64,000 nucleotides of DNA. It comes from a virus. Made by a program: the position numbers and the translations under genes. The DNA is taken from the IMG/VR virus record IMGVR_UViG_3300034073_004742, positions 5,074 through 69,073 of that record; one strand, 5' to 3'. The notes beneath the pieces are model-generated. The model was given only the letters and a program-made list of their open reading frames with translations, did no database searches and was not told where the DNA came from. This document shows, one piece after another, positions 3,783 through 41,669 of this stretch (position 1 is the stretch's first letter; each line of letters opens with the position of its first letter).

Positions 3783-5220
3783 TGTTGTTCTCATCATTAA
3801 CGATAAATCCTTTGTCTGTGTTAGTATTATTATTTACTAATTCCAATCTTGTCTTACCTTCTTCAATTTTTGCACACCAGCCCTTCATGTGACAATTAAT
3901 ATAGTCATTGTCGTCTAGACCTCCACCGTGTCTACTAATAATAGGAACAAGTTTTCTATTACCATTAGTCGGTCCGTCTTCGGCAATCTCTTCGTCGCTT
4001 TTTCTTTTGAAAATAGTAAAATTGCTACATAACCATATTATACGATCAGAGCCGCTGGCGGTATCTGTGGTTTCTTTTGTTATACCATCCCTATTTAATT
4101 GTATAAAACCAAGAATAGGAACTTTATATCTGACAGCAAAATTATGTAAGCTTGTCATCATAAAACCTAAAACCTGATACTCTTTCATATCCTGAGATAT
4201 TCCTGCACTATCCATTAGTTTTAGATAATCATAAACAATAACGCAGTCTTTGGCTGTTCCATCTGGGTGTAGCCCAACCTCTTTAACCAACCATCTTCTC
4301 ATGATAGCCAATTGTTCTTCAAATGGTTTACCAGCGATTGACTTGTAATACAGTCTAACATCTTTAAGTTCTTTTTGAGCCGTTTGTAATCTATTATTTT
4401 TATCCGGAGACTCAAATGCTTTACCGGTTTCTATACTTGAAATCTCTATTTCTGTCATCATGGCCAAAACCCTATTAAGATGATCGTCTGTGCTCATCTC
4501 GGTGTCCATATTTAATACTGGCACTTTGACATTTTTTGCTATGTGTAAACCAATATTATCTGCTAGCAGAGTCTTACCAGTTTTTGGTCTTGCAGCTATA
4601 ATACTTACTGATCCTTTTCTAAGACCACCACCTATAGCATTGTCATAAACATGAAATCCTGTAGATATGCCAACTTGATCAATGGGATTTTCTTTGATAT
4701 TATTGATATAATCATCAACGATATTTGCTATACAAACAGGATTATTGTCGGTATCATTTAGCAGTGTTGAGAAATTGAAGATACTATCTTCTGCTAATCC
4801 TATAATCGACGATATTGGTTCGGCACCGGTTATATCTAATAATTTTTCTTTTGCTTCTTCTAGTTGATCTCTAAGTAATCTAGCTATTTGTAGTTTTCTA
4901 ATTTTAGCTGCAAATTTTCTAACATTTTCTAGATTAACCGGAAAATCTATAATAGCTTTTAAATGTTGAGTCTCATTTTTTTGAGATAAAATATGACCAA
5001 AATTTAATGATTGAGCAACAGATAGTATTGAGGCTATATCTATAGAAGGACTATGATCTTTTTCACATATTTCTTTTATTACTTGATATATCATTATATT
5101 ACTATCAACAGTAAATGTTGATGGCTGTATAATATCCGCAATATCTAAGTATGCATTTTCACCGTATTTGCATATTCCAGACAATACCGCTCTTTCTGCG
5201 GCAGGATCACAAAGTATCAT
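3754..5220 (-). CDS. dnaB: Replicative DNA helicase DnaB
   Basis: AAERAVLSGI N-domain, IIAARPKTGKT Walker A, DTEMS, IVYDYLKLM, QLNRDG, SGSDRI. Confidence 0.93.
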   Translation of the reverse strand: MILCDPAAERAVLSGICKYGENAYLDIADIIQPSTFTVDSNIMIYQVIKEICEKDHSPSIDIASILSVAQSLNFGHILSQKNETQHLKAIIDFPVNLENVRKFAAKIRKLQIARLLRDQLEEAKEKLLDITGAEPISSIIGLAEDSIFNFSTLLNDTDNNPVCIANIVDDYINNIKENPIDQVGISTGFHVYDNAIGGGLRKGSVSIIAARPKTGKTLLADNIGLHIAKNVKVPVLNMDTEMSTDDHLNRVLAMMTEIEISSIETGKAFESPDKNNRLQTAQKELKDVRLYYKSIAGKPFEEQLAIMRRWLVKEVGLHPDGTAKDCVIVYDYLKLMDSAGISQDMKEYQVLGFMMTSLHNFAVRYKVPILGFIQLNRDGITKETTDTASGSDRIIWLCSNFTIFKRKSDEEIAEDGPTNGNRKLVPIISRHGGGLDDNDYINCHMKGWCAKIEEGKTRLELVNNNTNTDKGFIVNDENNNDDQEIPFV

Positions 5221-21801: not shown

Positions 21802-23378
21802 TACTGGTTAGTTGGTGTTTGGGTAATTGTTGGTGTTAATGTGGTGGTAGATGTTGGGGTTATTGTGGGTGTTAATGTGACGGTGGGTGTTGGGGTGGAA
21901 GTTTTTGTTACTGATGGAGTAGGAGTTTGTGATACATTCGGCATTTCTTTTACTAACATAATTTTATCATTGATACGTCCTTCTAAAATAAAACCCTTAT
22001 ATAATACTTTGATGTCATCATTACTATAAATATTAGGATTATATTGTAGTTGTCCAATTTTAAATGTATCACATAGAGCTTTAGTAGAAGTAGGAGTTGG
22101 AGTATATGTTGGTGTTGGTGTTGGCGTGTGAGAGGATGTAAAGCTTACTGTGGGTGTTGGTGTTTGAGTTCTAGTAACCGTTCTAGTGGGTGTTTTTGTA
22201 GGTGTACGAGTAGGAGTTGATGTTTTTGTTTGAGTCGGAGTTTGAGTATTTGTAACAGAAGGCGTGAGTGTGGGTGTTGGGGTAGCGCTTGCTGTAAGAG
22301 TTGTTGTTGTGGTTAATGTTGGTGTACAAGATGGAGTTAAGGATGGGGTTGTTGAAGGAGTGGGCGTTGGACTACTTGTTATACTTGGTGTGGGTGTTGG
22401 GCTAAGACATGCTCCAGGACTACCAAAAGTATTGTTTGCTATTCCATTATTAACATTAACTGTTATAGAGTATGGTTCTGTGTCGCTTTGTGTAGCATAT
22501 AGCCAATATCCACCTGTTCCATTTTTTGTTGGATCATAATAGGCTGCTTTTACCCACTCATCACGATCAGGAATCCAATAATATGTTTTATTTGAGGCTG
22601 TTGGTTTAACAAGAGGATTAGTGAAATTAAGAGAATATACCCCTGTTTCTGTCGAATTTACTGCTAGGCCACCGCTGTTAGGCTTGCTATTACTTAACCA
22701 ATTAATATATCTAGCCGCGCTATACCAGTTAACAAAATTAACTGGTTTTTTAGCCATATTATCTTTAACAGTATATACTATAGGATTAGTACCTGTTACT
22801 ACTATACCACCTCGAATATTTGTGGTCATAGAACCTATATATGGCCATATACTATTAGCTGGTACCGCCAAAGCATTATTTAAAGCAGGAACTCTTGCCA
22901 CATTATTTAAAAATAAGACATATTCTTCATTTGTTATAGTAAATTTAGATATTTTATATTCATAATTAACTTGTCCAAGATCATCTCCATAATGATTTCT
23001 ATTTGTGTCTCCAATATTAGAACCAGATACTGTTACAAAGTTACTATCTGAGATACCAGAATTTGCACAAACTCTAAATCCGAATCCTGGTCCTGTGTTT
23101 CTTATATCTATAGTGAAACCATCGATACTTATTAGGTCTACTAATCTTGAATTATAAGAACCGCCGTAATATAATATGCTTTGCGATGATGGTATTTGAT
23201 AATCTATAATTTCCCATACATTGCCATTTTGATCGAATGTGCCATAAAAACTAGATTTGCCGTTTCCGCCAACACTTGTAATATTACCATTATTATCTAT
23301 GGTTGATGGCCATAAAGCCGTACTATCATAGTTTGCACTATTACAATTTCCTAATACAGAATATTCTGGAACACTCAT
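21801..23378 (-). CDS. Circularly permuted FGE-sulfatase (C-type-lectin fold) domain plus Pro/Thr stalk
   Basis: GTFDQNGNVWE...GGSY...GFRV precedes TITNEEY, PVNFVNWYSA and PDRDEWVKAAYY; PT repeats at C-terminus. Confidence 0.8.
   Translation of the reverse strand: MSVPEYSVLGNCNSANYDSTALWPSTIDNNGNITSVGGNGKSSFYGTFDQNGNVWEIIDYQIPSSQSILYYGGSYNSRLVDLISIDGFTIDIRNTGPGFGFRVCANSGISDSNFVTVSGSNIGDTNRNHYGDDLGQVNYEYKISKFTITNEEYVLFLNNVARVPALNNALAVPANSIWPYIGSMTTNIRGGIVVTGTNPIVYTVKDNMAKKPVNFVNWYSAARYINWLSNSKPNSGGLAVNSTETGVYSLNFTNPLVKPTASNKTYYWIPDRDEWVKAAYYDPTKNGTGGYWLYATQSDTEPYSITVNVNNGIANNTFGSPGACLSPTPTPSITSSPTPTPSTTPSLTPSCTPTLTTTTTLTASATPTPTLTPSVTNTQTPTQTKTSTPTRTPTKTPTRTVTRTQTPTPTVSFTSSHTPTPTPTYTPTPTSTKALCDTFKIGQLQYNPNIYSNDDIKVLYKGFILEGRINDKIMLVKEMPNVSQTPTPSVTKTSTPTPTVTLTPTITPTSTTTLTPTITQTPTNQ
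21810..22405 (-). repeat. Pro/Thr (mucin-like) repeats
   Basis: TPTPSITSSPTPTPS..., interrupted by a short LCDTFKIG-containing segment. Confidence 0.9.
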
Positions 23379-24503: not shown

Positions 24504-25967
24504 TTAAGAACAACTATAGTTACTATTTATTGGTCCATTACCATTAACATCGGCAGTAACACATGTTGGATCGGTGTCACTTTGAGTGGCATAATTCCAG
24601 TATCCTGCGTTAGTACCGCGGCCTTTGTAATAAGCCGCTTTGTACCATTCATTTTCACTAGGAATAAAATAGTTAGCATTAACATTACGAGTAATACTCA
24701 CTCCAGAAGTTGCTCCATTTAGAGTATAAGCTCCGTCTTCGGTAGTAGTATTATCTTGGTTTCCAGAGGACTTACCATTATGTAACCAGTTGCAATATCT
24801 TGCACAATCAAACCAGCTAACATAAACTACGGGTTTGTTCCCCATATTGGTCTTAACGGTGTAGGTATAGCTTCCGCTAGAACCAGATCGAGTTATGCCG
24901 CCTCTAGCACCGCTATCCATATTTGTATTGTATAAATTGTAAGTATCAGTACTCGCTACTGCGTTAAGAAATTCCGCATACTCACAATTGGTAACATGAT
25001 ATTGAGCAATACTATACACATAGTTTACGATTCCATAACCAGTACTATCAGCACTATTATAAACATCACCAACACTAACAAAATATGAAAGAGATAAAGG
25101 GTTAAGGGAACTTGCAAGACGAAAACCGAGGTAGATGTTTTCAACCAACGGGAGGTCTGCGGCACTACTGGAGGACGACACGCTGGACGCGCTGGCGACC
25201 CCCCAGTTGCCGCCCCGAGCAACACGAGACGAGCCTGTAATAGCTTCGGTCCAATTCCACACATTTCCGCTCTGGTCATATGTTCCATAAGCACTTGGCC
25301 CGCCATTACTTCCAACGGTTGTAACATTACCATCTTGACCATTCCAATCAGCGCAAATGTTAAAATTAGCACTATTGGCCCCTATTGGAAAAGGCGGAAG
25401 TGTTGGCGTAGGGGTTATCGTTGTAGTAGGAGTTGGCGTAATGGTGTTGGTTGGCGTGTTAGTAGGCGTAATGGTGTTGGTTGGCGTGTTAGTAGGCGTA
25501 ATGGTGTTGGTTGGCGTAATGGTGTTGGTTGGCGTAATAGTATTGGTTGGCGTAATAGTGTTGGTAGGTGTAATAGTTGAGGTCACTGTATTTGTTGGAG
25601 TAACGCTATTTGTTGGAGTAGGAGTATTCGTCTCGGTAGTAGTTGGTGTTGCTGTAGGTGTTGATGTAGCCGTATTAGTCGGAGTAACTGTTGGTGTAGC
25701 CGTATTAGTCGGAGTAACTGTTGGTGTAGCCGTATTAGTCGGAGTAACTGTTGGTGTAGCCGTATTAGTCGGAGTAACTGTTGGTGTTGTTGTTGGAGTA
25801 ATACTACTGGTAGGAGTAACGGTGTTTGTTGGAGATACCGATGGCGTAACCGACGTTGTCGGGGTAATAGTTGGAGTTGTGCTATTTGTCGGAGTTATAC
25901 TCGGCGTGATCGTCGGCGTGGGGGAAGGTATGATAGGACAACATTTAATATTAACAATATTTTTCAT
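24504..25967 (-). CDS. Pro/Thr stalk plus circularly permuted FGE/C-lectin domain; candidate DGR target
   Basis: [10 protein letters not shown]...RGGNW...GFRLAS precedes [16 protein letters not shown] and [12 protein letters not shown]. Confidence 0.85.
25119..25226 (-). other. Putative DGR variable repeat (GC-rich, NNC-rich patch)
   Basis: 68/108 G+C; 17 of the 29 codons from GGC GGC to CTC end in C; spans RGGNW to GFR. Confidence 0.55.
25665..25784. repeat. Four exact 30-bp tandem repeats encoding ([10 protein letters not shown])4 within a larger PT tract (about 25380-25930)
   Basis: tgtagccgtattagtcggagtaactgttgg x4. Confidence 0.95.
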
Positions 25968-26274: not shown

Positions 26275-28221
26275 TTATGAAGATAAATAATCAAAACCAT
26301 AGTCTGGTAATTTTTGTAATGGAAATCCATCAAAGTCACTAAAAGCGTATGCTCCATTACCTTTTAACATACCGGCTGCTACATCTGCTTTTATTAAAAA
26401 TGATCCGTTTGGAATAGTGTCCCATTCAGGATGTCCTCCAGAGTTCCAACTATTCCCACACCAAACAGCCCTTCCGTTTCTTCTAACATACATAATATGA
26501 TTAGGAATAGTAGCACAATATATTTTACCATTATAAGGTAATAATATTGGTTTTGTTCCATTATGTTCTCTTGGTGTTAGTGAAATTTCTTTTATATTAA
26601 GTCTATATTCTTTATGTCTAGTTATATTTTTATGACCATTTTTTCCATTATCTCTACCAATACGATCAACCTCTATTATATCTGCGGCTAATCCTATTTT
26701 TAGTATTAGTTCTTGCATATCATCTGCTAGTTTTTTTGAGGATGTATAATAATTAATTTTACCATTAGACCTAGAACCGTCTCCTAGCATCATAGCATCA
26801 AAAAATATTTTTTGTTGTCTTGATGACAAATTTTTTATATAGTCTGGGATATATTTTTGATGAGCTTTACCATAAATTTTCAATTTATTATATAAGTTTT
26901 TGTCATAAGACACCATATTCGAAGAAAATCTAAATGGTAGCTTATTTATACAATTTTGTATTATTTCTCTTGATTCTTTTTTATTCTGACTTATACCAAC
27001 TAATCCATAATATTTAATATCTCCATTAGACATTACTTTTTTATGATTACAAGTATGTCCTTCAGAAATAAAATATCCTAAAAATTCTAACCATAAGTCC
27101 ATAGATATAATATTTGAGCCTATTTTTATATTCTCGACTTCTTCCCCTTTCCATTTTGCATTTTTTTTAATATGAATATATTTAGGGCAATTTTGTGATT
27201 CTATTAATTGCCAAGAATCAATTTTATCTAAATCAGAATTTAACTTACCAATATACATATTATGATTATCTGTAACTAATAAATCTACTCCTCTAAAATG
27301 ATAATGATTTAAATAGCCATTATAATCATACTCAAATTTTTGTTGAATTTGTTGCCACTCTAAATAATGATTATTTGGATTTAATGTTGCTAATATGTCA
27401 GTGTCTGTTAAGTTTTTAAATAATTTCCATCCTGTTTTAGTAAGCACTTCAGTATCGTCTGAATAACAACCCCAACTATTTTGTACTAAAAACGCTGGTT
27501 CACTACCAGTATCATCACAAGCAATCCAGGCCATAGCGTGAGCCCAAGAACCTTGTGGTTTAGCAAAACCCTTATTATCTCTTTTATTACTAAAACCATA
27601 CATACTACAAACACTAATACCATAACCATTAGCTAAGGCATCTCGTGCTTCTTCTACTGTTCTTACTAAACTAACAGTTTTTACTTGATGATCATTAGCT
27701 AAATCTATAACTTTATCTGGTAGTCCTCGTCCTCCCCAACCAGCACCTAGCATACCTTGATATTTTGTTAAATCTATAACACCCTTATAATCTTTTCTGA
27801 CTAAAACTCCACCATACTTACTTACAAATTCTGCTGCTCTAGCACAACTCATACCCTGACCACCATGTCCTCTTGCTCCATAAATAGCTTCTGTTGCTCC
27901 TCTTGCTATCCATGCTTCTCTATTTCTCTTAACATCTATTTCTACAGCACGAGTAACATCTACCGCATTACGGGTAGAGTGGCTAACACAGTCACTCGTC
28001 ACCTGACGCTCATTATATGGATTCTTATCAAACTTCAAAACACTTTTGTATGGAGTAGATAGTTTACCCTTGCCTGTCCCAACTATTCTTTTTGCTCCAT
28101 CACCAAAATAAGCATATTTAGAAACTTCTAATAAATGATCAAAAATATGCTGTTCCCACAAGCACCCTTGAAATCCATCCTTATAAAGTTTGTATAATTG
28201 TTCTGGTGAGTATCTAGCCAT
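26275..28221 (-). CDS. Papain-like (C1A-type) cysteine peptidase interrupted by an intein (spliced product about 309 aa)
   Basis: ERQVTSDCVSH (Gln/Cys), WAHAMAWI (His), LVQNSWG (Asn). Confidence 0.8.
   Translation of the reverse strand: MARYSPEQLYKLYKDGFQGCLWEQHIFDHLLEVSKYAYFGDGAKRIVGTGKGKLSTPYKSVLKFDKNPYNERQVTSDCVSHSTRNAVDVTRAVEIDVKRNREAWIARGATEAIYGARGHGGQGMSCARAAEFVSKYGGVLVRKDYKGVIDLTKYQGMLGAGWGGRGLPDKVIDLANDHQVKTVSLVRTVEEARDALANGYGISVCSMYGFSNKRDNKGFAKPQGSWAHAMAWIACDDTGSEPAFLVQNSWGCYSDDTEVLTKTGWKLFKNLTDTDILATLNPNNHYLEWQQIQQKFEYDYNGYLNHYHFRGVDLLVTDNHNMYIGKLNSDLDKIDSWQLIESQNCPKYIHIKKNAKWKGEEVENIKIGSNIISMDLWLEFLGYFISEGHTCNHKKVMSNGDIKYYGLVGISQNKKESREIIQNCINKLPFRFSSNMVSYDKNLYNKLKIYGKAHQKYIPDYIKNLSSRQQKIFFDAMMLGDGSRSNGKINYYTSSKKLADDMQELILKIGLAADIIEVDRIGRDNGKNGHKNITRHKEYRLNIKEISLTPREHNGTKPILLPYNGKIYCATIPNHIMYVRRNGRAVWCGNSWNSGGHPEWDTIPNGSFLIKADVAAGMLKGNGAYAFSDFDGFPLQKLPDYGFDYLSS
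26452..27468 (-). mobile_element. Intein with LAGLIDADG endonuclease, 339 aa, Cys1 / Gly-Asn end / Ser+1
   Basis: CYSDDTEVLTKTGWK start, VTDNHNMY block B, FLGYFISEG and AMMLGDG, IYCATIPNH block F, ends VWCGN|S. Confidence 0.9.
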
Positions 28222-29943: not shown

Positions 29944-30420
29944 TTATTGATTCACCAATGACTCCCATAATTCAATATCTGTTGCATATATTTCACGAAC
30001 TCTATTTTCTTGTTCTGGCGTTAAAACGGGTTTATTTTCACTAGCATCCAAATGTGGCAATGGCACGGTAATTCCAAGCCAATCTGCACAGTCTTGTAGT
30101 TGCGTTTCAAATAAAAATGCTCTGTCATAATTTGTAATATGGCAGAACTCACAACCGTATATTGGATTTTCTAATTGTTCTTCAACTGTTCTATTTCTAT
30201 GAGCCACCATAGATCGAAATCTTTCAATTGGATTTCTAACAATAACACATTTTTGACCATTGTCTTGGCTAATTGGATAAAAATAAGCAGGATGATAAGA
30301 GTCTGTTATTTCTATATCTGGATAAAAGGATTGTAACATAGCCATTGCTATTGAGTGCGATCCACTGCGAGGAATTAGAATTATACTATTTCCATTCGGG
30401 CTTGTTAATATGCTTGGCAT
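29944..30420 (-). CDS. Minimal sulfotransferase-like protein
   Basis: LIPRSGSHSI and IVRNPIERFRS. Confidence 0.6.
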   Translation of the reverse strand: MPSILTSPNGNSIILIPRSGSHSIAMAMLQSFYPDIEITDSYHPAYFYPISQDNGQKCVIVRNPIERFRSMVAHRNRTVEEQLENPIYGCEFCHITNYDRAFLFETQLQDCADWLGITVPLPHLDASENKPVLTPEQENRVREIYATDIELWESLVNQ

Positions 30421-30422
30421 AA

Positions 30423-31826
30423 TTATGTAAAGTAAAGTATTACTGCTCCTGTTTCTCTAGTTTCATTTGTACCGTATCCATTACCGCCACCTATACCACC
30501 AGAAATAAATCCTCCTACTTTATTAAAATAGCTACCAGCACCAAATACATTTGGATTACTAGGATTAATATTTTCTATATTTGTGGTTGGGTCTATTCCT
30601 AATAGATTTAATACGGCAAATAGACCATCTACATCTGTTGCTTTAAATACTATATGTCCTCCAATATTTTGTGAGGTATTTCCACCAACCGCCCCCGCAG
30701 ACCAAACTCCGTTACCCAAATATTGTGTTGATCCTCCTATAGCTCCACCGTCTCCGCCAGAAAATTCTCCACCGTTAAATTTGAGAGTTCCATTGCTTGC
30801 TCTACCGCCACCAAATCCAGTAATAGTCGTTCCATTATATGTTACTGTTGTATTATTACCGGGCGCATCAAAATTGGTATTACTAACAGCAGCACCAACT
30901 GTATAAGCTACAGAAGAGCCACTATTAACATTCCAAGTTTTATATGCTGTTCCACCAGCGGATCTTTGATAATTTCCACCACTTCCAATAGCCCATGCTT
31001 TCATAGTGGTGGCACCAGTTGGTACTGTATATGAAGAACCCGTTGTTAGCACGACTGCCATTGGTGAAAATTGTGTCGCAGTGGTGGGTGTTGTCGTTGG
31101 TGTTGCTGTTGTTGTTGGGGTTGTTGTTGCTGTTGTTGGGGTTGTTGTTGGAGTTTCTGTTGGTGTTGTTGTGGGTGTTGTTGTGGTGGTTATGCTTGCT
31201 ATTGATAATATCGCTGTAGCGGTGGGGTTCTGCCCATATGGACCTTCATCTTTCATCCAGCGAACGACAAGATGCTCGCCCTCAGTCACAGAGGCAGTGC
31301 CGGTCAGCGTACTACCACCAATGGCGCTATTAGATATCGCAGTGCCGCCAGAGATAGTGGAGCTGCTTGACCATTCATGCTGACTAGGTGTTCCAGCATG
31401 ACGAAACAGTCTTGCTTCGCCCTGATAACCGCTGCCAGAAAGCGATATAGACCATGATAACGTTCCAGTCTGGTTGACCAACAGCCATACGCGATGATCC
31501 TCGTCATCTGTTGCAGCATTTCCGCCCCCTACAGTGACCGTCATCGGACTGCCAGACGTTCCCTGACCAGACACGCTGTACTGATCTGGGAATGGATTTA
31601 CGTTGTCAGCAGATGCCTTGTAATAATTAGAAAATGATAAATTGTTTTGTGCTGCTGGAGTAGCCGTGGGCGTAAGAGTGGTCGTTGTGGTTGGAGTTGG
31701 TGTAGGCGCAATCGTTGTGGTTTGACTCGGAGTTGGTGTGGGCGTAATAGATTCCTCTGATTTTCTAACCTTGATAGATCCATTACTATTTAATGCTTTA
31801 TTTAAATTAATTTTAAAAACAGTCAT
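30423..31826 (-). CDS. Modular Pro/Thr-linker protein with Gly-rich C-terminal domain (tail fibre/adhesin-like)
   Basis: Two Thr/Pro tracts flanking a GC-rich beta-rich module; LTTGSSYTVPTGATTMKAWAIGSGG Gly-rich domain. Confidence 0.7.
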   Translation of the reverse strand: MTVFKINLNKALNSNGSIKVRKSEESITPTPTPSQTTTIAPTPTPTTTTTLTPTATPAAQNNLSFSNYYKASADNVNPFPDQYSVSGQGTSGSPMTVTVGGGNAATDDEDHRVWLLVNQTGTLSWSISLSGSGYQGEARLFRHAGTPSQHEWSSSSTISGGTAISNSAIGGSTLTGTASVTEGEHLVVRWMKDEGPYGQNPTATAILSIASITTTTTPTTTPTETPTTTPTTATTTPTTTATPTTTPTTATQFSPMAVVLTTGSSYTVPTGATTMKAWAIGSGGNYQRSAGGTAYKTWNVNSGSSVAYTVGAAVSNTNFDAPGNNTTVTYNGTTITGFGGGRASNGTLKFNGGEFSGGDGGAIGGSTQYLGNGVWSAGAVGGNTSQNIGGHIVFKATDVDGLFAVLNLLGIDPTTNIENINPSNPNVFGAGSYFNKVGGFISGGIGGGNGYGTNETRETGAVILYFT

Positions 31827-31836
31827 AATTTAAATC

Positions 31837-32040
31837 TTATAGAGTTCCTGAGCCTATTGTATAGTAGCGAATATCATCAAATCTTTCATCATATTTATTT
31901 TCTATATCAGTAATAACTGGTTTATTATAAACGTTAGAGTTTTGATATTGAAAACTATTTGTAAAAGGAGAAGGAGATACTACAAGAGTGCCATGTTTGA
32001 TAGCTTGATCACTTTTTGATAAACCAATATCATTTGCCAT
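31837..32040 (-). CDS. Small hypothetical protein
   Basis: 67 aa, tight packing. Confidence 0.6.
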   Translation of the reverse strand: MANDIGLSKSDQAIKHGTLVVSPSPFTNSFQYQNSNVYNKPVITDIENKYDERFDDIRYYTIGSGTL

Positions 32041-32041
32041 A

Positions 32042-32362
32042 TTATGCCCTTTCTATTCTTTCTTCTAATGCTTCTAGTGTTTTGCCTAGTGTGACTAATT
32101 GAATTTTGAGTTCGTTCATAACTTCTGTGTTTCGTTGTAATGCAGAGGCGAACGCTGCTTGGCTCTCTTTATTAGCTGCTAATCTTTCCATAATAAATTG
32201 ACGATCTTGAGAATACGGACTTTGAGTTTCTATCATATGTAAAACATCATTTTTTGTGGCCATATTTTTTCCTACTGTTACCCAAAATCCCACAAGGGTC
32301 ACAACTATTCCGAAACTTGTGGTAGCAACTACTTGCCAAAAATCGATAATATTTTCATTCAT
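32042..32362 (-). CDS. N-terminal TM plus coiled-coil protein
   Basis: VVATTSFGIVVTLVGFWVTV followed by a heptad-rich C-terminus. Confidence 0.7.
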   Translation of the reverse strand: MNENIIDFWQVVATTSFGIVVTLVGFWVTVGKNMATKNDVLHMIETQSPYSQDRQFIMERLAANKESQAAFASALQRNTEVMNELKIQLVTLGKTLEALEERIERA

Positions 32363-32400
32363 AATATAATCTCTATAGTTATGATTAGTAAAATAATAAT

Positions 32401-32411
32401 ATTATACACCA
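32401..32411 (-). promoter_or_regulatory. Recurrent promoter-like motif TGGTGTATAAT
   Basis: 39 nt upstream of the 32362 start. Confidence 0.6.
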
Positions 32412-32436
32412 AAATAAACTTATTAAATTTTATATA

Positions 32437-33741
32437 TTATGGCACAAAATTGTATTGCTGACCGGAATAATATTCTGTTTTAGATGGTGTGACTGTTGGC
32501 GTTGTTGTTGGAGTAGGTGTTTCTGAGGATGTTAACGAAATTGTGGGTGTTGGAGTTGGTGTTTCCGAAGATGTTGGAGTTGGTGTGGAGGTTGGTGTTT
32601 CTGAAGGTGTTAGGGTGGGGGTTGGTGTGGGAGTTGGTGTTTCCGAAGATGTTTGTGTAGGAGTTGGTGTTGCGGTCAATTCTATTGAAGAGCTAGGAGT
32701 CTGGGTCTGTGTCACAGAAGCTGTTGGAGTAGGGGTTAATGTGGATGTTAGTGTCGAAGTAAAAGTTGGAGTGTTTGTATTTGTTATTGATGGTGTTGGA
32801 GTTAATGTTTGAGTATTGCTTGGAGTCAATGTTGGTGTTGGAGTTGATGTTGGTTGTGATGTGGATGTTACTGTTGGGGTCTTTGTTTGGGTGGGCGTTT
32901 TTGTAGGAGTTCTTGTTTGTGTTGGTGTTTTTGTTGGTGTTTTTGTTGGTGTTCTGGTTGGCGTTTTTGTAGGTGTTCTGGTTGGATTCGGAGTTTTAGT
33001 GGGAGTTCGTGTTTGTGTTGGTGTTGGTGTGCTAGTTTTTGTTGGTGTTGGAGTAATAGTAGGTGTTAGAGTATTGGTAGGAGTATTTGTTGGAGTTGGA
33101 GTTGGTGTTTTTGATGGTAAAATAATAGGACTAGTACTACTACAATTAATAAATAAATTACTAATAATATTAACTAAATCACCATTTGTTTGTATCGGAT
33201 CACTAGTATACAAAGGATTTGTCACACCTTTTTTATATAGTTTTATTATGTGATAATTATTTTCTTTACTATTTTTACTAGTATTATAATTTTTGAAATC
33301 TAATGATAAATTACAAGAACAAGGCCGAATTATTTCGGCAGATGCGCAAAAATTGCCAATATTATCAAACCATGTTCCAGTATCAAAGATACCCAAATAA
33401 AGATATCCTGTTGTTGATGCTGTAAATATATGATTAGTTCCTATTGTAATACTATTATTTGTAGTAAAAGGTATTGTGCTACTATTTATATTAGATATAA
33501 CACCAAAAGCAGTATTATAGTACAGTCCATTGAATCCATTTGCGTCGCTATTACAAAAAGTTCCATAATAACATGATACGCATCCTCTAACATTCACAGA
33601 AACTATATCTCCAGCATTTACAAACAATGATGTGTTTTTTAAGGTTGAGCCATCATTATAGTTTAATCTGGTTTCATTATTATTACAAATTGTTTCAATA
33701 ATATTAGAACAATTATTTTGTATATTATTAGTATTATTCAT
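32437..33741 (-). CDS. Lectin-like (possibly LecA/PA-IL-like) domain plus long Pro/Thr tail
   Basis: [13 protein letters not shown]...[17 protein letters not shown]; about 210 aa of PT repeats. Confidence 0.6.
32480..33115 (-). repeat. Pro/Thr repeats ([16 protein letters not shown] units)
   Basis: Direct reading of the translation. Confidence 0.9.
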
Positions 33742-33759
33742 AATGTATTACTTAAAATT

Positions 33760-36700
33760 TTATGTTGTAATTATTCTTTCTGTCCAAGAAATTCCACTAT
33801 CAGTACTGGTATAAATATGTCCGACATATACAGTGGAAACTAGTTTGGTTCCATCGGCACTACTAGTAATACGATACCAGTTTCGATTATTTTCTCTCGC
33901 TATCCAAGACACCCCACTATCAATACTTGTATAAATTTGTCCATTTTCTACAACAGCAGCAAGTTTAGTTCCATCACTACTACTGGTTATATCTATCCAT
34001 TGTCTTTGTCCTGATGCAAATCGTGCAATCCAAGTTGCGCCACTATCGGAACTAGTATAAATATATCCATTATATACAGTTGCTGCTAATTTAGTTCCAT
34101 CACTGCTGCTGGTTATAGCAGTCCAAGCATGAACCATATTAGAAATAGATCTGACTGTCCAATTTACTCCGCTATCAGAACTAGTGTAAATATCTCCATT
34201 ATTAATTGATACTGCTAATTTTACACCATCACTACTACTAGTAACTCTAATTAAACCAGCAGAAATTGTGGTTATTCTGTTCGTCCAATTAGCTCCACTA
34301 TCAATACTAGTCGAGACTCCACCGCTATTACTTGCAACTAGCTTAACCCCATTAGAATTACTAGCTATATCAATCCAAAATATATAATTATTATTTTTTA
34401 GTGTCCAATTGATTCCACTATCGGAACTAGTATAAACATCACCATTACCTATAATTGCTACAAGATTATTTCCATCGTCACTACTAGCAATAGCTTTCCA
34501 TTGTCGATTACTTTGTGTTGCTAGTCTTGCTATCCAGTTGGTCCCACTGTCACTACTTGTATAAATTTGTCCATTCCAAGCAACAGCAGCAAGTTTAGTT
34601 CCATCACTACTACTGGTAATATCGCTCCATGGTTTGCTATAGTTTGTTGGAGTAACTGTTGGCGTGACTGTTGGTGTAGTGTTTGGTGTTGTCGCGGGAG
34701 TAGATGTTAGCGTAATAGTTGGCGTTGGAGTAGTTGTTTGGGTTACTGTATTTGTGGGAGTAACTGTTGGTGTTACTGTTGGAGTAAGAGTATTAGTCTG
34801 GGTGGTTGTTGGTGTAACTGTGTTAGATGGAGTAACTGTTGGAGACACTGTTGGTGTTGCCGTATTGGTAGGAGTAACTGTCGGTGTTACTGTGTTCGAT
34901 GTAGTAACAGCTGGTGTTGCTGTAACTGTTGGCGTTGTCGTATTGGATGGAGTAACTGTTGGGGTTACAGTATTACTCGGAGTAACTGTTGGGGTTGCAG
35001 TATTACTCGGAGTAACTGTTGGGGTTGCAGTATTACTCGGAGTAACTGTTGGGGTCGCAGTATTACTCGGAGTAACTGTTGGAGTAACTGTGTTGGATGG
35101 AGACACCGTCGGCGTTACTGTTGGAGTAACTGTGTTAGATGGAGACACCGTTGGCGTTGCTGTTGGAGTAATACTACTTGTAGGAGTAACTGTCGAAGTG
35201 GCTGTTGGTGTGGTGGTTGGTGTTGTTGTTGGAGTAGATGTTGGCGTAATAGTTGGTGTTGGAGTAGGCTTGGGAGTATTTAGTATAATTTTAATAGATT
35301 GATTTTTAATATCACAATAATTATTTTTAATATGAGGATTATAAGAATTTATAGTTGGTTGAATATATGATTGATTATTACTAATAATTTTAATATGATT
35401 GCTACAAGAGATGTTATTGGATTGTACAACGTGAGGATTAATATGATTAATAGTTGGTGGAGTATACAGCATATTATTTCCAATAATTTTTATAGAAGAG
35501 TTATTTGAACATTGTTTTTGATATGTTATTGGTTCAACATAAGGATTGTCGCATCCGTAGCATCTAGACTCTTTTGTTGATGCTTTGATAGTGCTTCCAT
35601 TGGAACTAGCACAATTACCATAAATTATTATTTGATATTTATCAGTATAAAAATTAGTTATTTCAATAGGATCGAATGTGATATTTGTAGAATTAATAAC
35701 GCAATTATTTTTTTCAACATATTCTTCTACACATATATAATAACAGCATTCTCCAACACAAGACGATGGAAGCGGCGTAGATGCTGGTGTTGGCGTTGGC
35801 GTGAGTGTGGGAGTTGCTGATGGTGGTGGTCGCGGACTTGGGGACGAAGATGGTAATGGCGGAGACGGTGGACTCGGAGGACTAGGTGGCGATGGTGGAC
35901 TTGGTGGACTTGGTGGACTTGGAGGCGATGGAGGACTTGGTGGGCTTGGAGGTGATGGAGGACTTGGTGGCGATGGTGGACTCGGTGGACTTGGAGGTGA
36001 TGGTGGACTTGGTGGACTTGGTGGCGACGGAGGACTTGGCGGCGATGGTGGACTTGGTGGCGAAGGCGGCGATGGTGGACTTGGTGGCGAAGGCGGCGAT
36101 GGTGGACTTGGTGGCGAAGGCGGCGACGGTGGACTTGGAGGCGATGGTGGACTTGGTGGACTTGGTGGACTTGGTGGACTTGGCGGCGAAGGCGGACTTG
36201 GTGGACTTGGTGGCGACGGAGGACTTGGCGGCGAAGGCGGACTTGGTGGACTTGGTGGCGAAGGCGGCGATGGTGGACTTGGCGGCGATGGTGGACTTGG
36301 CGGTGAAGGAGGACTTGGTGGCGAAGGCGGCGATGGTGGACTCGGTGGACTCGGAGGACTAGGTGGCGACGGAGGACCGGGTGGCGGTGGCGGTGGTGGC
36401 GGCGAACAACCCTCGCTACTACAAGAAGGACACTGAGGACAAGCAGATGCTCCGCCGCCTTCTTCTATACATTGACCACACGTTGGACTAGAAGGATTGG
36501 TATCGCAAAATAGAAATTTAGTACAGCACGGATCTTGTTCTGGACAAGGATCCTCTGGTGTGCAGACTTTAACTAGGTTGTTCGGGCTGTTTGGGCAACA
36601 ACGACTCTCAGGATTTACTCCATCAGTTTCTTGATTAAAAATTATATTACAATCGTTTTCATCTTTACCCATATAACAACTACCTTGTACTAATCCTGTA

Positions 36701-36909
36701 AAAACTCCATTCTGATCTGCACAAGCTTCAAAACTTGTAGTATAGAACGGAGCACCTTGACAAGTTCTAAGACCATTATTACAATCAACAATTTGCTCAA
36801 CTGGACATTGTTGATCGCATGGTATCTGTGAAACTATTTTACAAGTGCCACATATACCTCCTTCATATTCTAAACTATTAATAGTATCTTGTAATTGTAA
36901 TTTTTTCAT
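33760..36909 (-). CDS. 1049-aa modular protein: Cys-rich N-domain, (SPP)n rod, PT stalk, 7-repeat BNR/Asp-box beta-propeller
   Basis: Seven S.DG.KL...YTS.DSG..W repeats at the C-terminus; about 58 SPP units. Confidence 0.85.
34640..35275 (-). repeat. Pro/Thr repeats including 4 near-exact 30-bp units (34951-35070)
   Basis: agtaactgttggggttgcagtattactcgg unit. Confidence 0.9.
35857..36380 (-). repeat. (Ser-Pro-Pro)n tract, about 58 units, 9-bp degenerate repeat
   Basis: ggtggactt / ggcgatggt / ggcgaaggc variants. Confidence 0.95.
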
Positions 36910-36963
36910 TTTATTTTTTAAAAATAAGAATTCTTTTTAATTAACTGTGATAATATACAGTGA

Positions 36964-38424
36964 TTATGCTCCAGGAACATCAATACATATTCCATTTCTA
37001 CAAATTTGTCGATCAGTACAGCAATTACGTCCACAACAAGGATTATGATCTGGACCGGCGATAGGACACGCCATAAAATCACAACATACGTATTCACTTT
37101 TCTTTAGACATTGTAAATTAGCAATATTAGTAATATCTCCACAACAAACTTCATTGTCTTCACAACAATTTGCGCTTCCACAACAAAATTTATTATCAGG
37201 ACATATATGAGCCAACGGCGTACCAGCAAAACAACATTTGCTTCCTCTTTGCTGATAGCAACCACCACCCGGACAACAAGTTTCACCAGGATTGCAGCTT
37301 TCGATGTCCGATCCTCCTTTATCGGGACAATTTTTACATACTCTTCTACATTTTCCATCTCCGCATACTTTTTCGCCTTGTTCGCAGCATCTAGGCTGTC
37401 CACTCCCATCTTTTCCGGCTCTACGCTCTGAACAACACTGGCCGGCATGCCATTTGTGTCCTTTAGCACAACATACTTCTGTATTGCGCTCGGGAGCAGG
37501 AAAACACCTTTCTCCTGCTTTTGTGTTGCAGTAAGAACCTGTATCGCAATTACATCGTATAAATCCTGGATATTCGCAAAATACATTATTACACACTGGA
37601 TCCCATTGGGCAGTGCCTTTTTTTCCAGATTGTGGAGGGCATGTAAAACAAGTTGGACCCTGAGGTGTGTTCTTGCAGTCTTCCCTGACACAGCATTTTC
37701 CACCACAAGAAATCTCTCTATTACTACAACACTGTTTTGTTCCATCATTTTTCTGTATAATTTTATCAGTCCTACAACATGTTCCATTAGATAAACATGA
37801 ATGTGTAGCCATATTACACGGTTTTTTATTACAGCATACAAATCCGTCCTTGAGCAATATTCCATTACAACATTGCTCTTCATCTACACAATTATCTTCG
37901 CAACATATTTGCCCACTATCAGTATCACAGCCACATCGTTGCTCTCCACACGGTCCTGCGCAATTTGCATCAGCTTGAGTTGAGAATTCTTCATTATTTA
38001 CTATAAATCTATCACATTTAGTTTTTATAATTTTACCATCACAACATTCTTCGTCCAGAGCTAAAATCTTTCCGCCACAACAGGCTGTTGATAATACGCA
38101 TTGTCCATTACAACAAGTTTTTATACTATTAGTAGTATCACAACATGAGTCTCCGCAAGTTGTTAATGGAGGTTTTTGATCTTCACAAGTATGATATTCT
38201 GTTGTGCTCCACGATGTATAATGCACACATTCTCCATACTTAATATCTCCATCATTGCAACTATCTCCTAAATTATCATTTGTGGAACAATAACAATTAT
38301 CATCACAATCTTGCTCTAAAAACCACATAGGTTTGGAAAAAATTTCATTTTGAACTTCTATACTAATATGTTCTAATGAAGGAATTCCACATCTCCACCA
38401 GCAAGAAGAATTACAATTATTCAT
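36964..38424 (-). CDS. Cys-rich repeat protein (CC-type repeats)
   Basis: Repeated CC...C units (TCCNGQC, ACCGGK, CCDGK); no signal peptide seen. Confidence 0.8.
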   Translation of the reverse strand: MNNCNSSCWWRCGIPSLEHISIEVQNEIFSKPMWFLEQDCDDNCYCSTNDNLGDSCNDGDIKYGECVHYTSWSTTEYHTCEDQKPPLTTCGDSCCDTTNSIKTCCNGQCVLSTACCGGKILALDEECCDGKIIKTKCDRFIVNNEEFSTQADANCAGPCGEQRCGCDTDSGQICCEDNCVDEEQCCNGILLKDGFVCCNKKPCNMATHSCLSNGTCCRTDKIIQKNDGTKQCCSNREISCGGKCCVREDCKNTPQGPTCFTCPPQSGKKGTAQWDPVCNNVFCEYPGFIRCNCDTGSYCNTKAGERCFPAPERNTEVCCAKGHKWHAGQCCSERRAGKDGSGQPRCCEQGEKVCGDGKCRRVCKNCPDKGGSDIESCNPGETCCPGGGCYQQRGSKCCFAGTPLAHICPDNKFCCGSANCCEDNEVCCGDITNIANLQCLKKSEYVCCDFMACPIAGPDHNPCCGRNCCTDRQICRNGICIDVPGA

Positions 38425-38454
38425 TTTGATAATCCTTTGAAGTTTTATTTAAAT

Positions 38455-41250
38455 TTAGCACCATTTAATACATTCGGTATAAGTATCACTATCTTCGTCA
38501 ATATCACATTTCATACACCTATCTCCAAAACTACAGCCAACACAAGATCCATCAACGCATTTTCTACATAATTTTTGACTACATTGATTAATACAAACAG
38601 CAGAACCTGGAAAAATTGATGAGCTACATATCTCACATTTTGTAGTGTCGCACTTTAGTACACACTCTCCATTTTGACACTCTTCGCATTTTTTAGGATC
38701 GCACTTAGTGACACATTGTCCATTTATACATACTTCACATTTATTTTTATCACATTTGTTAACACATCCACCTTTATTATCACACTCTTCGCATTTTTTA
38801 CTATCGCAATTGATTATACAATTACCTCTAGAGTCGCATGTTTCGCATTTAGCAGCGTCGCATTTTGCAACACATTTATTATTTTCGCACTTTTCACATA
38901 ATATGCTACAATTAGGTACACAATTTCCACGTTCGCATCTTTCGCATTCGTTACATTTTGATTCGCATTTTCCTTTTCCATCACATATTTCACAATTATT
39001 GCGATTACAAACAACAACACAACCGATTGGGCCACATACTTCACATTTGTCTGGATTACATATATATATACAGTTTTTATTTATACAACTTACGCAAGGA
39101 TTGTTTTTACATTGCGAAACACAATTTCCACCAATACATTCTTCACATAAAAATTCGTTACATGATGATTTACATACTCCTTGATCGCAATATTCACATT
39201 CTTTACAAGTAGACACACAATTTCCTTTGCCATCACATTGTAAACATTGTTTTGAGTCACATCCACCATCTACACATTGATTATTAACACAAATTTGACA
39301 GTCATTACATATGTTGGTACATTTTCCACTAAGATCACAATCCGAACAATCTCCACACTTAGGAACACACTCTCCTTTTGCATTATCGCATTTTAAACAC
39401 GGAGATGCTTCCGAACATGATTTATATCCCTTATCGGTACAAACCGTACATGGTGGACCTGATTCTACACAACTTCTACTACCATTTATCATTACACATT
39501 TTCTACCGGAACATTGTGGAGTAGAACATGGATCAACACACTTTCCATTTACACAATCTAAACAAGGATCATCACAAAAACATTTTTCGTCTTTACATTT
39601 GCAAGATCCACATTCACAACAAGGGTCTTTTACACATTTTCCATCTTCACAAATTTCGCATAATAATTCATTGCATGACGATTTACAATGTCCATTTTTA
39701 CATATTTCGCAATTATCTGGTTTACAAAATATTTTACAATCACCGAATTCTTTATCGCACTCTTCACATTGTTCGGCTCTGCAAGTATATACGCATCTTC
39801 CTTGACCATCACACTCTAAACATTTTTTTGGATCACATGATGATACACACTGTCCATTTTCACATATTTCGCAATTTAGATAATCACAACTATCTTTACA
39901 AAAAGATCCAGTACATCTCAAACAATTATTACTATCGCAACTATCTACACATTTTCCATTTTCACAGTCGTAGCAGCCGTTACATTTGGGTGTACACCAT
40001 CCACCAGAACAAATTTCACATTCATTGCATTGATTTTTACATACTCCGTTGTCACAAATTTCGCATTTACTTTTGTCACATTTAGAATAACATCTTCCAG
40101 ATAAACATTCTAAGCAGCTTTTGGGATCGCAAGGATCTACGCATTTAGAATTACCGTCACAAACTAAACATGAATTTTTACCACCACAAGCACTTACACA
40201 TTGGTCATTTTCGCACACCATACAATTTTTACCGTCACAACCATCCACGCACTGATCGTCGATACATCTTTGACAACCACTACACGAATTGTAACATGTG
40301 CCATCGCAACGCAAACAATTACCACTACATTTTGGAACACATTCACCTGTTTGATAATTACATACTAAACACGAAGACGCTTGAGAACATGGTAGATAAC
40401 CCTGTTGTGTACAAGCTCTACAAAATCCTCCATTATCAACACACGAAGGTTCTCCATCTACTAAAACACATTTTCTACCAGGACACTCTGGTGTAGTACA
40501 TCGATCAACACACTCTCCGTCTTTACAAACTTCACAAGCACTATCACAAACACATGTTTCGTTTTCGCATTTACAAGATCCACATTCGCAGCAAGGATCT
40601 TTTACACATTCACCGTCTTCGCAAATTTCACATTCTTTACAAATTGATTCACAAACATCTCCTGCGCAACGTTGACAATTTTCTTTCTTACAAGGATTAA
40701 TGCATTTACCATTTTCACAAACATTACATCCTTTACAGATTATACCACAACATTTATCTCTATTTCCACAACAAGGATCATTTGATCCGCAACATGGATC
40801 GGTGTTATTGCAGCATGGTCCACGACAATTTTTATATCCGCCGGGAGACGGCGGGCTTGGTGGACTTGGTGGACTAGGAGGAGACGGCGGGCTCGGAGGA
40901 GGCGGTGAAGGAGGAGGAGGTGGTGGTGGTGGTGGTGGTGGTGGTGGTGGTGGTGGTGGTGGTGGTGGTGGAGGTGGCGGGGGAGGAGGTGGAGGAGATG
41001 GCGGTGGCGGGGGTGGAGGCGAAGGAGGTGGCGACGATGAACATATTCCTCCATAAACCTGGCCATTTGTTGGGTTGGCTACTGGAGGAGGTGGACAAAA
41101 AGGTTCACATCCATCGGGACAAGGTATAGATATCATCCATGTACAAGATTGAGATCCATCATCATTGGCCACACAAACAGCAGTGTATTGACAGTCACAT
41201 CCTGGTGTGCTGGCTAGTGGTTCTATATTAAAAATATTTTTTATTTTCAT
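38455..41250 (-). CDS. 931-aa poly-Pro plus extremely Cys-rich repeat protein
   Basis: About 17-aa CxxC-x3/4-GxC-x3-C unit repeated for about 780 aa; internal duplication of the KDPCCECGSCKC block. Confidence 0.85.
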   Translation of the reverse strand: MKIKNIFNIEPLASTPGCDCQYTAVCVANDDGSQSCTWMISIPCPDGCEPFCPPPPVANPTNGQVYGGICSSSPPPSPPPPPPPSPPPPPPPPPPPPPPPPPPPPPPPPPPPPPSPPPPSPPSPPSPPSPPSPPSPGGYKNCRGPCCNNTDPCCGSNDPCCGNRDKCCGIICKGCNVCENGKCINPCKKENCQRCAGDVCESICKECEICEDGECVKDPCCECGSCKCENETCVCDSACEVCKDGECVDRCTTPECPGRKCVLVDGEPSCVDNGGFCRACTQQGYLPCSQASSCLVCNYQTGECVPKCSGNCLRCDGTCYNSCSGCQRCIDDQCVDGCDGKNCMVCENDQCVSACGGKNSCLVCDGNSKCVDPCDPKSCLECLSGRCYSKCDKSKCEICDNGVCKNQCNECEICSGGWCTPKCNGCYDCENGKCVDSCDSNNCLRCTGSFCKDSCDYLNCEICENGQCVSSCDPKKCLECDGQGRCVYTCRAEQCEECDKEFGDCKIFCKPDNCEICKNGHCKSSCNELLCEICEDGKCVKDPCCECGSCKCKDEKCFCDDPCLDCVNGKCVDPCSTPQCSGRKCVMINGSRSCVESGPPCTVCTDKGYKSCSEASPCLKCDNAKGECVPKCGDCSDCDLSGKCTNICNDCQICVNNQCVDGGCDSKQCLQCDGKGNCVSTCKECEYCDQGVCKSSCNEFLCEECIGGNCVSQCKNNPCVSCINKNCIYICNPDKCEVCGPIGCVVVCNRNNCEICDGKGKCESKCNECERCERGNCVPNCSILCEKCENNKCVAKCDAAKCETCDSRGNCIINCDSKKCEECDNKGGCVNKCDKNKCEVCINGQCVTKCDPKKCEECQNGECVLKCDTTKCEICSSSIFPGSAVCINQCSQKLCRKCVDGSCVGCSFGDRCMKCDIDEDSDTYTECIKWC
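40921..40971 (-). repeat. Pure (CCA)17 microsatellite within a poly-Pro run of more than 25 residues
   Basis: tgg x17 on the plus strand. Confidence 0.95.
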
Positions 41251-41669
41251 AGTATATTATTTTTATTCATATTAATTGTTTCTATAAGTTTAGTTTTAGA
41301 AATAATTTTTAATTTTAGATCAAAAAAATAATCGATAATATAATTATTAGTATCAGTTAAATTAGTATAATTAATATCTATACTTTTTTTAGAATACTTA
41401 AACATATCTATATATTCATTTGAGTCTAAAATTTTTGTTCTAATTCCATGACTACTTAGAATACTATTAGCTTCTAGTGCTCGATCATATCTATAAAGAG
41501 TATTAAATATATTTAGTAAATTATTGATACTATCTTCTATTATAAAATCCATATCGTTTGATTTACTCATTATTTTATATCCATAATAATTAGCTGCAAC
41601 ACTTCCTGTTAGTATCATATTAACGTTATTATTTAATAATTCTTGTATTAATTTTAATCTTGGCGTCAT
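41247..41669 (-). CDS. Minimal nucleotidyltransferase-fold protein
   Basis: ILTGSVAANYYG...SNDMDFII (GS...DxD). Confidence 0.6.
   Translation of the reverse strand: MTPRLKLIQELLNNNVNMILTGSVAANYYGYKIMSKSNDMDFIIEDSINNLLNIFNTLYRYDRALEANSILSSHGIRTKILDSNEYIDMFKYSKKSIDINYTNLTDTNNYIIDYFFDLKLKIISKTKLIETINMNKNNIL

Follow-up and report, generated by a model that had tools for sequence, protein, structure and literature searches.

A probable circular permutant of the FGE-sulfatase fold on a stalked phage protein

Introduction

Does the gene at positions 24504..25967 (minus strand) of a 64,000-nucleotide stretch of viral DNA encode a formylglycine-generating enzyme (FGE)-sulfatase domain whose two parts stand in reverse order, and, if so, how did this arrangement arise and what does the protein do? 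The stretch, hereafter the window, covers positions 5,074 to 69,073 of the IMG/VR virus record IMGVR_UViG_3300034073_004742, a record of 77.7 kb with a completeness rating of 47%. The predicted protein (P0001, 487 amino acids) consists of a short N-terminal motif, a Thr/Pro stalk, and a domain of 296 residues (amino acids (aa) 192-487) that ends the protein. A preliminary description of the window, made from the sequence alone, had read this domain as a circularly permuted FGE-sulfatase/C-type-lectin domain in which the normal termini are joined through a LNPLSLS linker and the chain is opened between ATQSDT.P and NSAN, burying the normally C-terminal variable segment and freeing both termini for fusion to stalks.

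Hypervariation driven by diversity-generating retroelements (DGRs) uses the FGE-sulfatase/C-type-lectin fold as its main scaffold, and so do many binding proteins of phages and bacteria. Descriptions of the fold normally place it C-terminally, with the variable loop closing the protein. Circular permutation in itself is no rarity.

Results

Sequence order of the domain

The motifs of the fold (EVTNxxY, PVxxVSW, LPTEAEW, GNVWEW, RGGSW, and GFR) are all present in P0001, and in the translation of 24504..25967 (-) those of the C-terminal part precede those of the N-terminal part, in the order given by the preliminary description. Against Pfam, the whole protein matches the FGE-sulfatase family PF03781 with 69 bits (E 6.4e-19; gathering cut-off 23.3) in two stretches, and it yields no single collinear match of the kind seen for its canonical relatives, each of which shows one match to positions 29/37-254. 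When the two halves were scanned separately, aa 209-285 aligned with profile positions 159-254 (E 7.9e-8) and aa 318-453 with positions 37-130 (E 7.6e-13). Sequences in the PDB were matched in the same reversed manner, query residues 183-227 pairing with SUMF2 116-153 and query residues 20-69 with SUMF2 187-240, and a profile of the permuted family paired its positions 29-101 with SUMF2 187-266, 9-101 with TvpA 184-292, and 187-215 with TvpA 90-118. In addition, the profile of the permuted units (C-half before N-half, hereafter CN) was compared by hhalign with a profile built from 65 canonical units (NC), and positions 103-290 aligned with 4-199 (E 1.5e-80) while positions 4-96 aligned with 205-298 (E 8e-30). 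Two partial matches in reversed order were what the preliminary description had predicted from an FGE-sulfatase profile.

The standard sequence test for circular permutation is the collinear alignment of the doubled sequence, and this test was run with natural sequences only, using proteins of the architecture CNCN. Positions 6-298 of the canonical profile aligned with CNCN positions 103-402, collinear over the N-to-C junction across 281 columns (hhalign, E 8.9e-94), and Pfam gave a single match over the same junction to PF03781 positions 36-254 (P0005:95-405). As is general for circular permutants, the doubled permuted sequence is collinear with the canonical one over its full length, and the realignment expected on re-permutation was thereby obtained.

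The two halves and the connection between them can be placed on the gene. The C-half, which normally forms the C-terminal third of the fold, spans aa 196-286 (25110..25382, -) and corresponds to Pfam positions 159-254 by Pfam, PDB sequences, hhalign, and structure. It is followed by the new linker SLNPLSLS (S287-S294; 25086..25109, -), which leads from the old C-terminus (GFRLAS) to the old N-terminal strand (YFVSVGD) and so joins the normal termini as had been claimed. This linker is conserved as SLNPLxL across the permuted family, and a histogram of the gap between C-half and N-half in the fetched relatives shows a cluster at 5-14 aa. The N-half, aa 295-487 (24507..25085, -), ends in ...NSNYSCS and, by Pfam, hhalign, and structure, comprises Pfam positions 37-130 plus the loop where the chain has been opened. 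The opening lies ~20 residues past ATQSDTDP and just ahead of NSANF, so that the break proposed in the preliminary description is correct to within one loop. Canonical relatives read straight through this loop as '...YW.Y.T.S..P....GD....AN.ANY...WNGQNGNVTTVG', and the protein P0010 reads '...YWLYPTASNSIPTFATANTSGDINNPGANVANYDRGADWNGQNGNVTTVG'.

Structure prediction and structural matches

A first AlphaFold2 model, based on a shallow alignment of 27 close homologues, reached a predicted local distance difference test score (pLDDT) of only 47.8 and was discarded. Prediction from 113 diverse permuted units (alignment A2) gave a pLDDT of 97.5 and a predicted template modelling score (pTM) of 0.95 over all 296 residues, values that indicate one compact rigid domain in the model. 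When this model was searched with VIA-align against 48,161 PDB representatives, the 15 best matches were all FGE/C-type-lectin proteins, with Z scores of 3.3-5.7. Nine matches pair approximately model residues 97-294 with the first two thirds of an FGE-type domain; the N-half matches were CarF, TvpA, ToxD, PorK (where the alignment extends to chain residue 381), PvdO, SUMF2, CalU17, and one EgtB (6o6l). Four matches pair model residues 1-101 with the C-terminal ends of EgtB-IV, OvsA, Mtd, and TaqVP, and three looser alignments, to EgtB 4x8b, SenA, and OvoA, run over most of the model. The same half-wise pattern was seen with cluster representatives of the AlphaFold DB, the N-half superposing on FGE-family models with a root-mean-square deviation of 1.3-1.9 Å over 180-191 residues. 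Foldseek against the PDB returned weak partial FGE-family matches only (best E 0.16), headed by TvpA. Weak partial Foldseek matches are expected because the chain is permuted, and structure aligners match one half at a time because they are sequential.

The predicted fold is thus FGE/C-type-lectin-like, as had been anticipated. With the profile, doubling, and structural results together, we hold with high confidence that residues 192-487 form a true circular permutant of the FGE-sulfatase (SUMF1-type, C-type-lectin-like) fold.

The variable loop and its probable template

Column entropy in the permuted domain peaks at ~3 bits over aa 242-281, compared with 1-2 bits elsewhere, and in this loop segment hardly any agreement is left between phage homologues whose frameworks are 85-90% identical. 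The variable segment thus lies in the first third of the domain, and the position of the module within proteins is free (see below), both of which agree with the proposed burial of the loop and release of the termini. The segment largely coincides with a variable-region-like patch at aa 244-286 (25111..25237, -), which follows RGG and aligns with a bacterial DGR template repeat (TR). The patch has a G+C content of 62% compared with 38% in the rest of the domain, contains many NNC codons, and is poor in A and, at third positions, rich in C; the same composition was found in 11 of the 35 phage modules examined. In a DNA alignment of five phage copies, identical scaffold codons (GCG, TTG TCG TCC TCC, AGG, GAG...) alternate with NNC codons whose first two bases vary. 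In DGR variable proteins the variable region (VR) is C-terminal, whereas here the linker and ~190 further residues of the domain come after the patch, which occupies aa 244-286 of the 487.

When metagenome contigs were scanned for the scaffold, 65 were identified, most of them with 60-68% G+C, and in most of these the scaffold belongs to a canonical FGE domain whose VR is directly followed by a PEP-CTERM anchor. Ten of the 65 carry an AAC-rich copy, the template repeat. Target and template lie on one contig, ~1.9 kb apart, in L197 and L199, and in L179, at a spacing of ~1.9 kb, there is another scaffold copy that has template-type flanks but is itself already varied. A reverse transcriptase (RT) open reading frame (ORF) lies between target and second copy in L179 (RVT_1, E 2.7e-22) and runs into the template in L208 (E 1e-22). 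These four metagenome contigs (63-67% G+C) carry compact bacterial DGR cassettes, in the order target, RT, and AAC-rich template, with the template ~1.9 kb downstream of the VR; the bacteria of L179, L197, and L199 are probably Planctomycetota/Verrucomicrobiota.

Phage patches were compared with the 124-nt template by gapped alignment, using the TR of L199 for P0001. The closest copies, L040 and L020, each have 96% identity at non-A positions (4 differences), with 18/32 and 13/31 A sites changed, respectively. They are followed by L044 (95%; 16/32), L005 (93%; 17/32), L004 (92%; 16/32), the P0001 patch itself (84%, 77/92, plus a 3-nt insertion; 18/32), and L001-L003 (80%; 15/32). The paralogous protein P0002 stands at 39% (8/30), and the counterpart of the loop in its gene (~23070-23170) is AT-rich (GC 0.24) and degenerate, having either been frozen for long or never been retroelement-written. 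Just upstream of the patch, phage and bacterial frameworks are only 63-70% identical. Since non-A identity is 84% in the patch of P0001 and 92-96% in those of L004, L005, L020, L040, and L044, compared with 63-70% in the adjacent framework, the sequence comparison argues well for a P0001 loop of DGR origin, with a template of this family as its source. Decay is graded across the copies, and as the match of P0001 is partly decayed and its record yielded no RT or template, its loop is probably frozen.

The predicted template was not found in viral contigs, and a first exact guess of it was not found in metagenome contigs. Neither phage nor bacterial copies gave support for a downstream hairpin of the kind present at the BPP-1 target site (z -2.2 to +1.7). 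Among public sequencing runs, seen as low-depth Logan contigs, an identical patch occurred in one run of the same study. In a freshwater run of another study (X5), a 238-nt contig identical over 24870-25107 ends 4 nt before the patch and leaves the patch uncovered; at this very low depth, the contig end is only a hint of heterogeneity at 25107-25257.

Alternatively, the loop could be an active remote target and no fossil, if a DGR carried by the host or a co-resident element, and not by the phage, continues to rewrite it in trans. This is suggested by phage copies with ~30% diverged frameworks that keep 92-96% non-A identity to one template and whose A-site changes are independent, and by the fact that two such phage records are rated 100% complete and have neither an RT nor a second scaffold copy. 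Set against this are the decay of the P0001 copy (84%, one indel), the location of the templates in contigs of 60-68% G+C, which makes an unlikely host for a phage of 30% G+C, and the lack of a conserved hairpin after the patch; in addition, capture of finished VRs by recombination would give an equal pattern. We therefore consider ongoing rewriting in trans unlikely. Equally doubtful is its extension to a hypervariable head that could be plugged in anywhere, the shift of the loop from chain end to interior enabling fusion at either end of a fibre, with the loop rewritten in trans from a DGR template outside the phage genome; if true, a viral receptor-binding gene and a hypermutation system of cells would then be coupled.

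Packing and function of the domain

A permuted chain might also be accommodated by domain swapping, in which the halves of P0001 complement those of neighbouring chains to give a head-to-tail oligomer or fibre of canonical-order domains. Many phage fibre proteins are intertwined oligomers, and some CNCN proteins have short linkers at both junctions (the N-to-C gap of P0006 is 5 aa), leaving their register ambiguous. The prediction is nevertheless a compact monomer with a pTM of 0.95, and the conserved 8-aa SLNPLxL linker is what would be expected of a connection within one domain, so that swapping appears improbable and a permutant folded within a single chain is preferred.

The catalytic cysteine pair of FGE, which forms a Cu site, is taken here to lie between RGGS and GFR, as in human FGE. 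In P0001 no cysteine occurs between RGG and GFR (aa 250-283), and the pair is therefore lacking. No signal peptide is visible in the translation of P0001, and the domain is preceded by a Thr/Pro-rich stalk of ~175 residues (~aa 17-191; 25395..25919, -) made of degenerate 6-10 aa repeats (direct-repeat families D1-D3). From the cysteine-free variable segment, the missing signal peptide, and the long stalk, the domain is likely to be a non-enzymatic binding head on a Thr/Pro stalk. Because a phage protein without an export signal gets outside only with the particle, this head may well be displayed on the virion, although we would put display and its absence at about even chances.

The automatic names of the relatives would instead make the domain an enzyme of the SUMF1/EgtB/PvdO type, formylglycine-generating or sulfoxide-synthase-like, acting on phage or host proteins, and there are many glycan- and sulfo-transferase-like genes nearby. 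However, the stretch that should hold the catalytic cysteines is cysteine-free and the most variable in the family, Pfam detects no DinB-like domain of the EgtB kind, no NCBIfam equivalog comes near its cut-off, and several of the closest neighbours in structure (TvpA, Mtd, TaqVP, SUMF2, and PorK) are non-catalytic. An enzymatic role is accordingly very improbable.

Relatives and origin of the permuted form

Relatives of the domain are numerous, with more than 7,700 scored matches in a 90%-clustered collection and 2,862 clusters of 50% identity at E<1e-30. In their sources they are named 'formylglycine-generating enzyme required for sulfatase activity' or 'SUMF1/EgtB/PvdO family nonheme iron enzyme'. 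Half profiles for C (aa 196-286) and N (aa 295-480) were mapped on 246 fetched proteins, giving 98 NCNC, 65 CN, and 29 CNCN architectures, along with NCNCN, NCNCNC, NCN, CNC, and others. The single CN proteins are often ~300-330 aa long and contain nothing else, and 55 framework columns are invariant across 27 sequences. Cellular relatives in either order come mostly from Planctomycetota and Verrucomicrobiota metagenome-assembled genomes, at identities of up to ~61%. In IMG/VR, a collinear open relative is encoded by 157 viral contig stretches, many of which belong to contigs 100-230 kb long; identity is 44-76% for the 80 that were kept.

Close relatives include tandems of either register (NCNC, CNCN, and CNC), and duplication followed by end-trimming is therefore the likely origin of the permuted form. 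By this route, a tandem pair of canonical domains with a short linker would have lost the first N-part and the last C-part, leaving a CN permutant. P0010 is a true canonical tandem whose linker of 8 residues (GFRVAS-PVSQAPVS-FDWVTVG) is equal in length to SLNPLSLS, and its middle already is the permuted unit; the forms NCNCN, NCN, and CNC resemble trimming intermediates. In a tree of the N-part, one clade (support 0.77) unites 75 tips, 99% of them permuted forms, with nearly all canonical units in another clade. A rival idea, that P0001 is a decaying leftover of a tandem array in which fragments of a C-half and an N-half have no fold of their own, draws on close relatives that are arrays with the same C-then-N stretch in their middle, but is rejected as having next to no probability given that 65 of the 246 relatives are single CN proteins, that the framework is strongly conserved with its 55 invariant columns, that the region is collinear and open in 157 viral contigs, and that AlphaFold2 predicts a single domain with a pLDDT of 97.5.

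The position of the module in phage and metagenome proteins varies. In phage proteins of 480-1,720 aa its start is often at residue 6-14, and internal and C-terminal positions occur as well. Partners on its C-terminal side include RCC1, BNR/sortilin propellers, Laminin_G_3, and DUF285. In a domain survey of bacterial conflict systems, the domain followed a strict syntax, with other domains always N-terminal to it (PMC7159879). The permuted form breaks this rule, which supports the inference that its termini have been freed.

Genomic surroundings

A paralogous permuted domain is found at the N-terminus of the 525-aa protein P0002 (21801..23378), where it occupies 22404..23378 (-) with the same reversed layout by Pfam. 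It is 40% identical to the domain of P0001, and in P0002 the Thr/Pro stalks come after the domain. A related phage contig, L001, is syntenic with the window and contains both paralogues, including the orthologue of P0001.

P0001 begins with a motif of 16 residues (25920..25967, -) that is a possible attachment peptide. The same I-K-C-C-x-I-I-P-S start precedes stalks or heads in P0001, in the L004 homologue, and in P0084. A second recurrent N-terminal peptide, FKIN..KL.YQNG.AKVRK, occurs in many single permuted-domain proteins, in the L005 homologue, and in the window ORF at 30423..31826 (-), and both recurrent peptides may serve for attachment.

The window, of ~30% G+C, codes for a terminase-like protein, a primase, a DnaB-like helicase, a UvsX-like recombinase, a ribonucleotide reductase, and many glycosyltransferases. 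An unusual run of proteins lies at 30400-41300 (-), with glycosyltransferase genes on its flanks; its members include heads on Thr/Pro stalks, a BNR propeller behind an (SPP)n rod, and two very Cys-rich proteins. The genes for the permuted domains form part of this cluster of stalked proteins, which are probably displayed at the surface. At 26275-28221 (-), a 648-aa protein has a papain-like 'QNSWG' motif and a LAGLIDADG-type insert (Pfam LAGLIDADG_3, aa 472-537). As its syntenic counterpart in L001 (3603..4532) has 309 aa only, this lineage appears to have acquired the insert, as an intein or homing element.

Discussion

Taken as a whole, a circular permutant that originated by duplication and trimming, acts as a binding head, and carries a DGR-derived loop is the best explanation of this locus, and we regard it as well founded. 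Several findings nonetheless weigh against one or another part of it. With regard to structure, packing of the halves as in the canonical fold is strongly suggested by the pTM of 0.95 and two partial superpositions of a model, the Z scores in VIA-align are only middling, and the structure is a prediction made from an alignment of the permuted family itself. With regard to origin, the N-part tree was midpoint-rooted and sampled the best matches to P0001, a biased sample, and some CNCN units fall among the canonical ones; because of this sampling and rooting, a single permutation event is not claimed. In addition, one 'NCNC' protein of 716 aa (P0023) is two full units of signal peptide, FGE domain, and PEP-CTERM in one ORF; it may be a read-through or gene-call fusion, and the counts of NCNC tandems are somewhat inflated. 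With regard to the DGR link, the 77.7-kb record contains no match to RVT_1, neither BLAST nor an adenine-tolerant scan over its full length showed the patch a second time, and no RT or template was found in 47 related phage records, 8 of them rated at least 90% complete, each carrying record having a single scaffold copy. When only adenine positions are allowed to differ between a VR and its TR, P0001 departs from the bacterial template at 15 of 92 non-A positions, in addition to 18 of 32 A sites, and has a 3-nt indel; the phage is also far lower in G+C (~30%) than the template-bearing contigs (60-68%).

The permuted form is a real, abundant, and apparently undescribed circular permutant of a well-studied fold. 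A tblastn search of P0001 against a GenBank phage collection returned zero matches, the only matches in PHROGs were to families without a known function or to a 'kinase' family that is mislabelled, and no NCBIfam family came near its cut-off. No published description of a permuted FGE/FGS domain was found in a full-text search whose coverage is incomplete, so that an earlier description is possible; literature in which permutation and fold terms occur together concerns other proteins. Such an abundant form alters the picture of the fold, as the binding head can then take an N-terminal, internal, or C-terminal place in a protein. With profile tools the module falls apart into two partial matches, its sources label it a formylglycine-generating enzyme, and searches for DGR targets that expect a C-terminal VR are likely to miss it. 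All of this bears on the way in which surface proteins of phages and bacteria incorporate hypervariable binding heads, and on the annotation of these heads. With tandem intermediates in both registers extant, the family is also a clean case from nature of a permutation produced by duplication and trimming.

Among known systems, human FGE (SUMF1, 1Y1E) and its paralogue pFGE (SUMF2, 1Y4J) share Pfam PF03781 and all six motifs with P0001, but the segment order of the phage domain is permuted, the FGE cysteine pair is absent from it, and only the phage protein has a Thr/Pro stalk. TvpA of Treponema denticola (2Y3C), a DGR variable protein, belongs to the same FGE-type C-type-lectin (CLec) fold family, is non-enzymatic, and has a VR of the form RGGSW...GFRLA; it was matched by VIA-align with a Z score of 5.4 over 141 residues. 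TvpA is collinear, with its VR at the extreme C-terminus beside its own RT and template, whereas P0001 has swapped halves and varies at aa 244-286 of 487. Mtd of Bordetella phage BPP-1 (1YU0) and TaqVP of Thermus (5VF4) are CLec-fold receptor-binding heads with a diversified loop, as is proposed for the putative head of P0001, and model residues 1-101 superpose on their C-terminal parts (Z 4.2 and 3.3, respectively). Unlike P0001, both are of the minimal CLec subtype and collinear, lie at the C-terminus of their proteins, and have a DGR in cis.

The closest framework relatives, at 45-60% identity, are the PEP-CTERM FGE-domain DGR targets of GC-rich bacteria (e.g., L179, L197, and L199), whose TR matches the phage patch at non-adenine sites. 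These targets are canonical, N-half then C-half, with the VR directly before the anchor and the RT and template beside the target, in all of which P0001 differs from them. Finally, saposin/swaposin and the DNA methyltransferases are textbook natural circular permutations that arose via duplication and trimming, and the same route, tandem duplication followed by outer loss, is the one proposed here, with tandem intermediates of the permuted module still extant. The fold is a different one, and in the permuted module the rearrangement would also have shifted a hypervariable, probably retroelement-written loop from the end of the chain to its interior.

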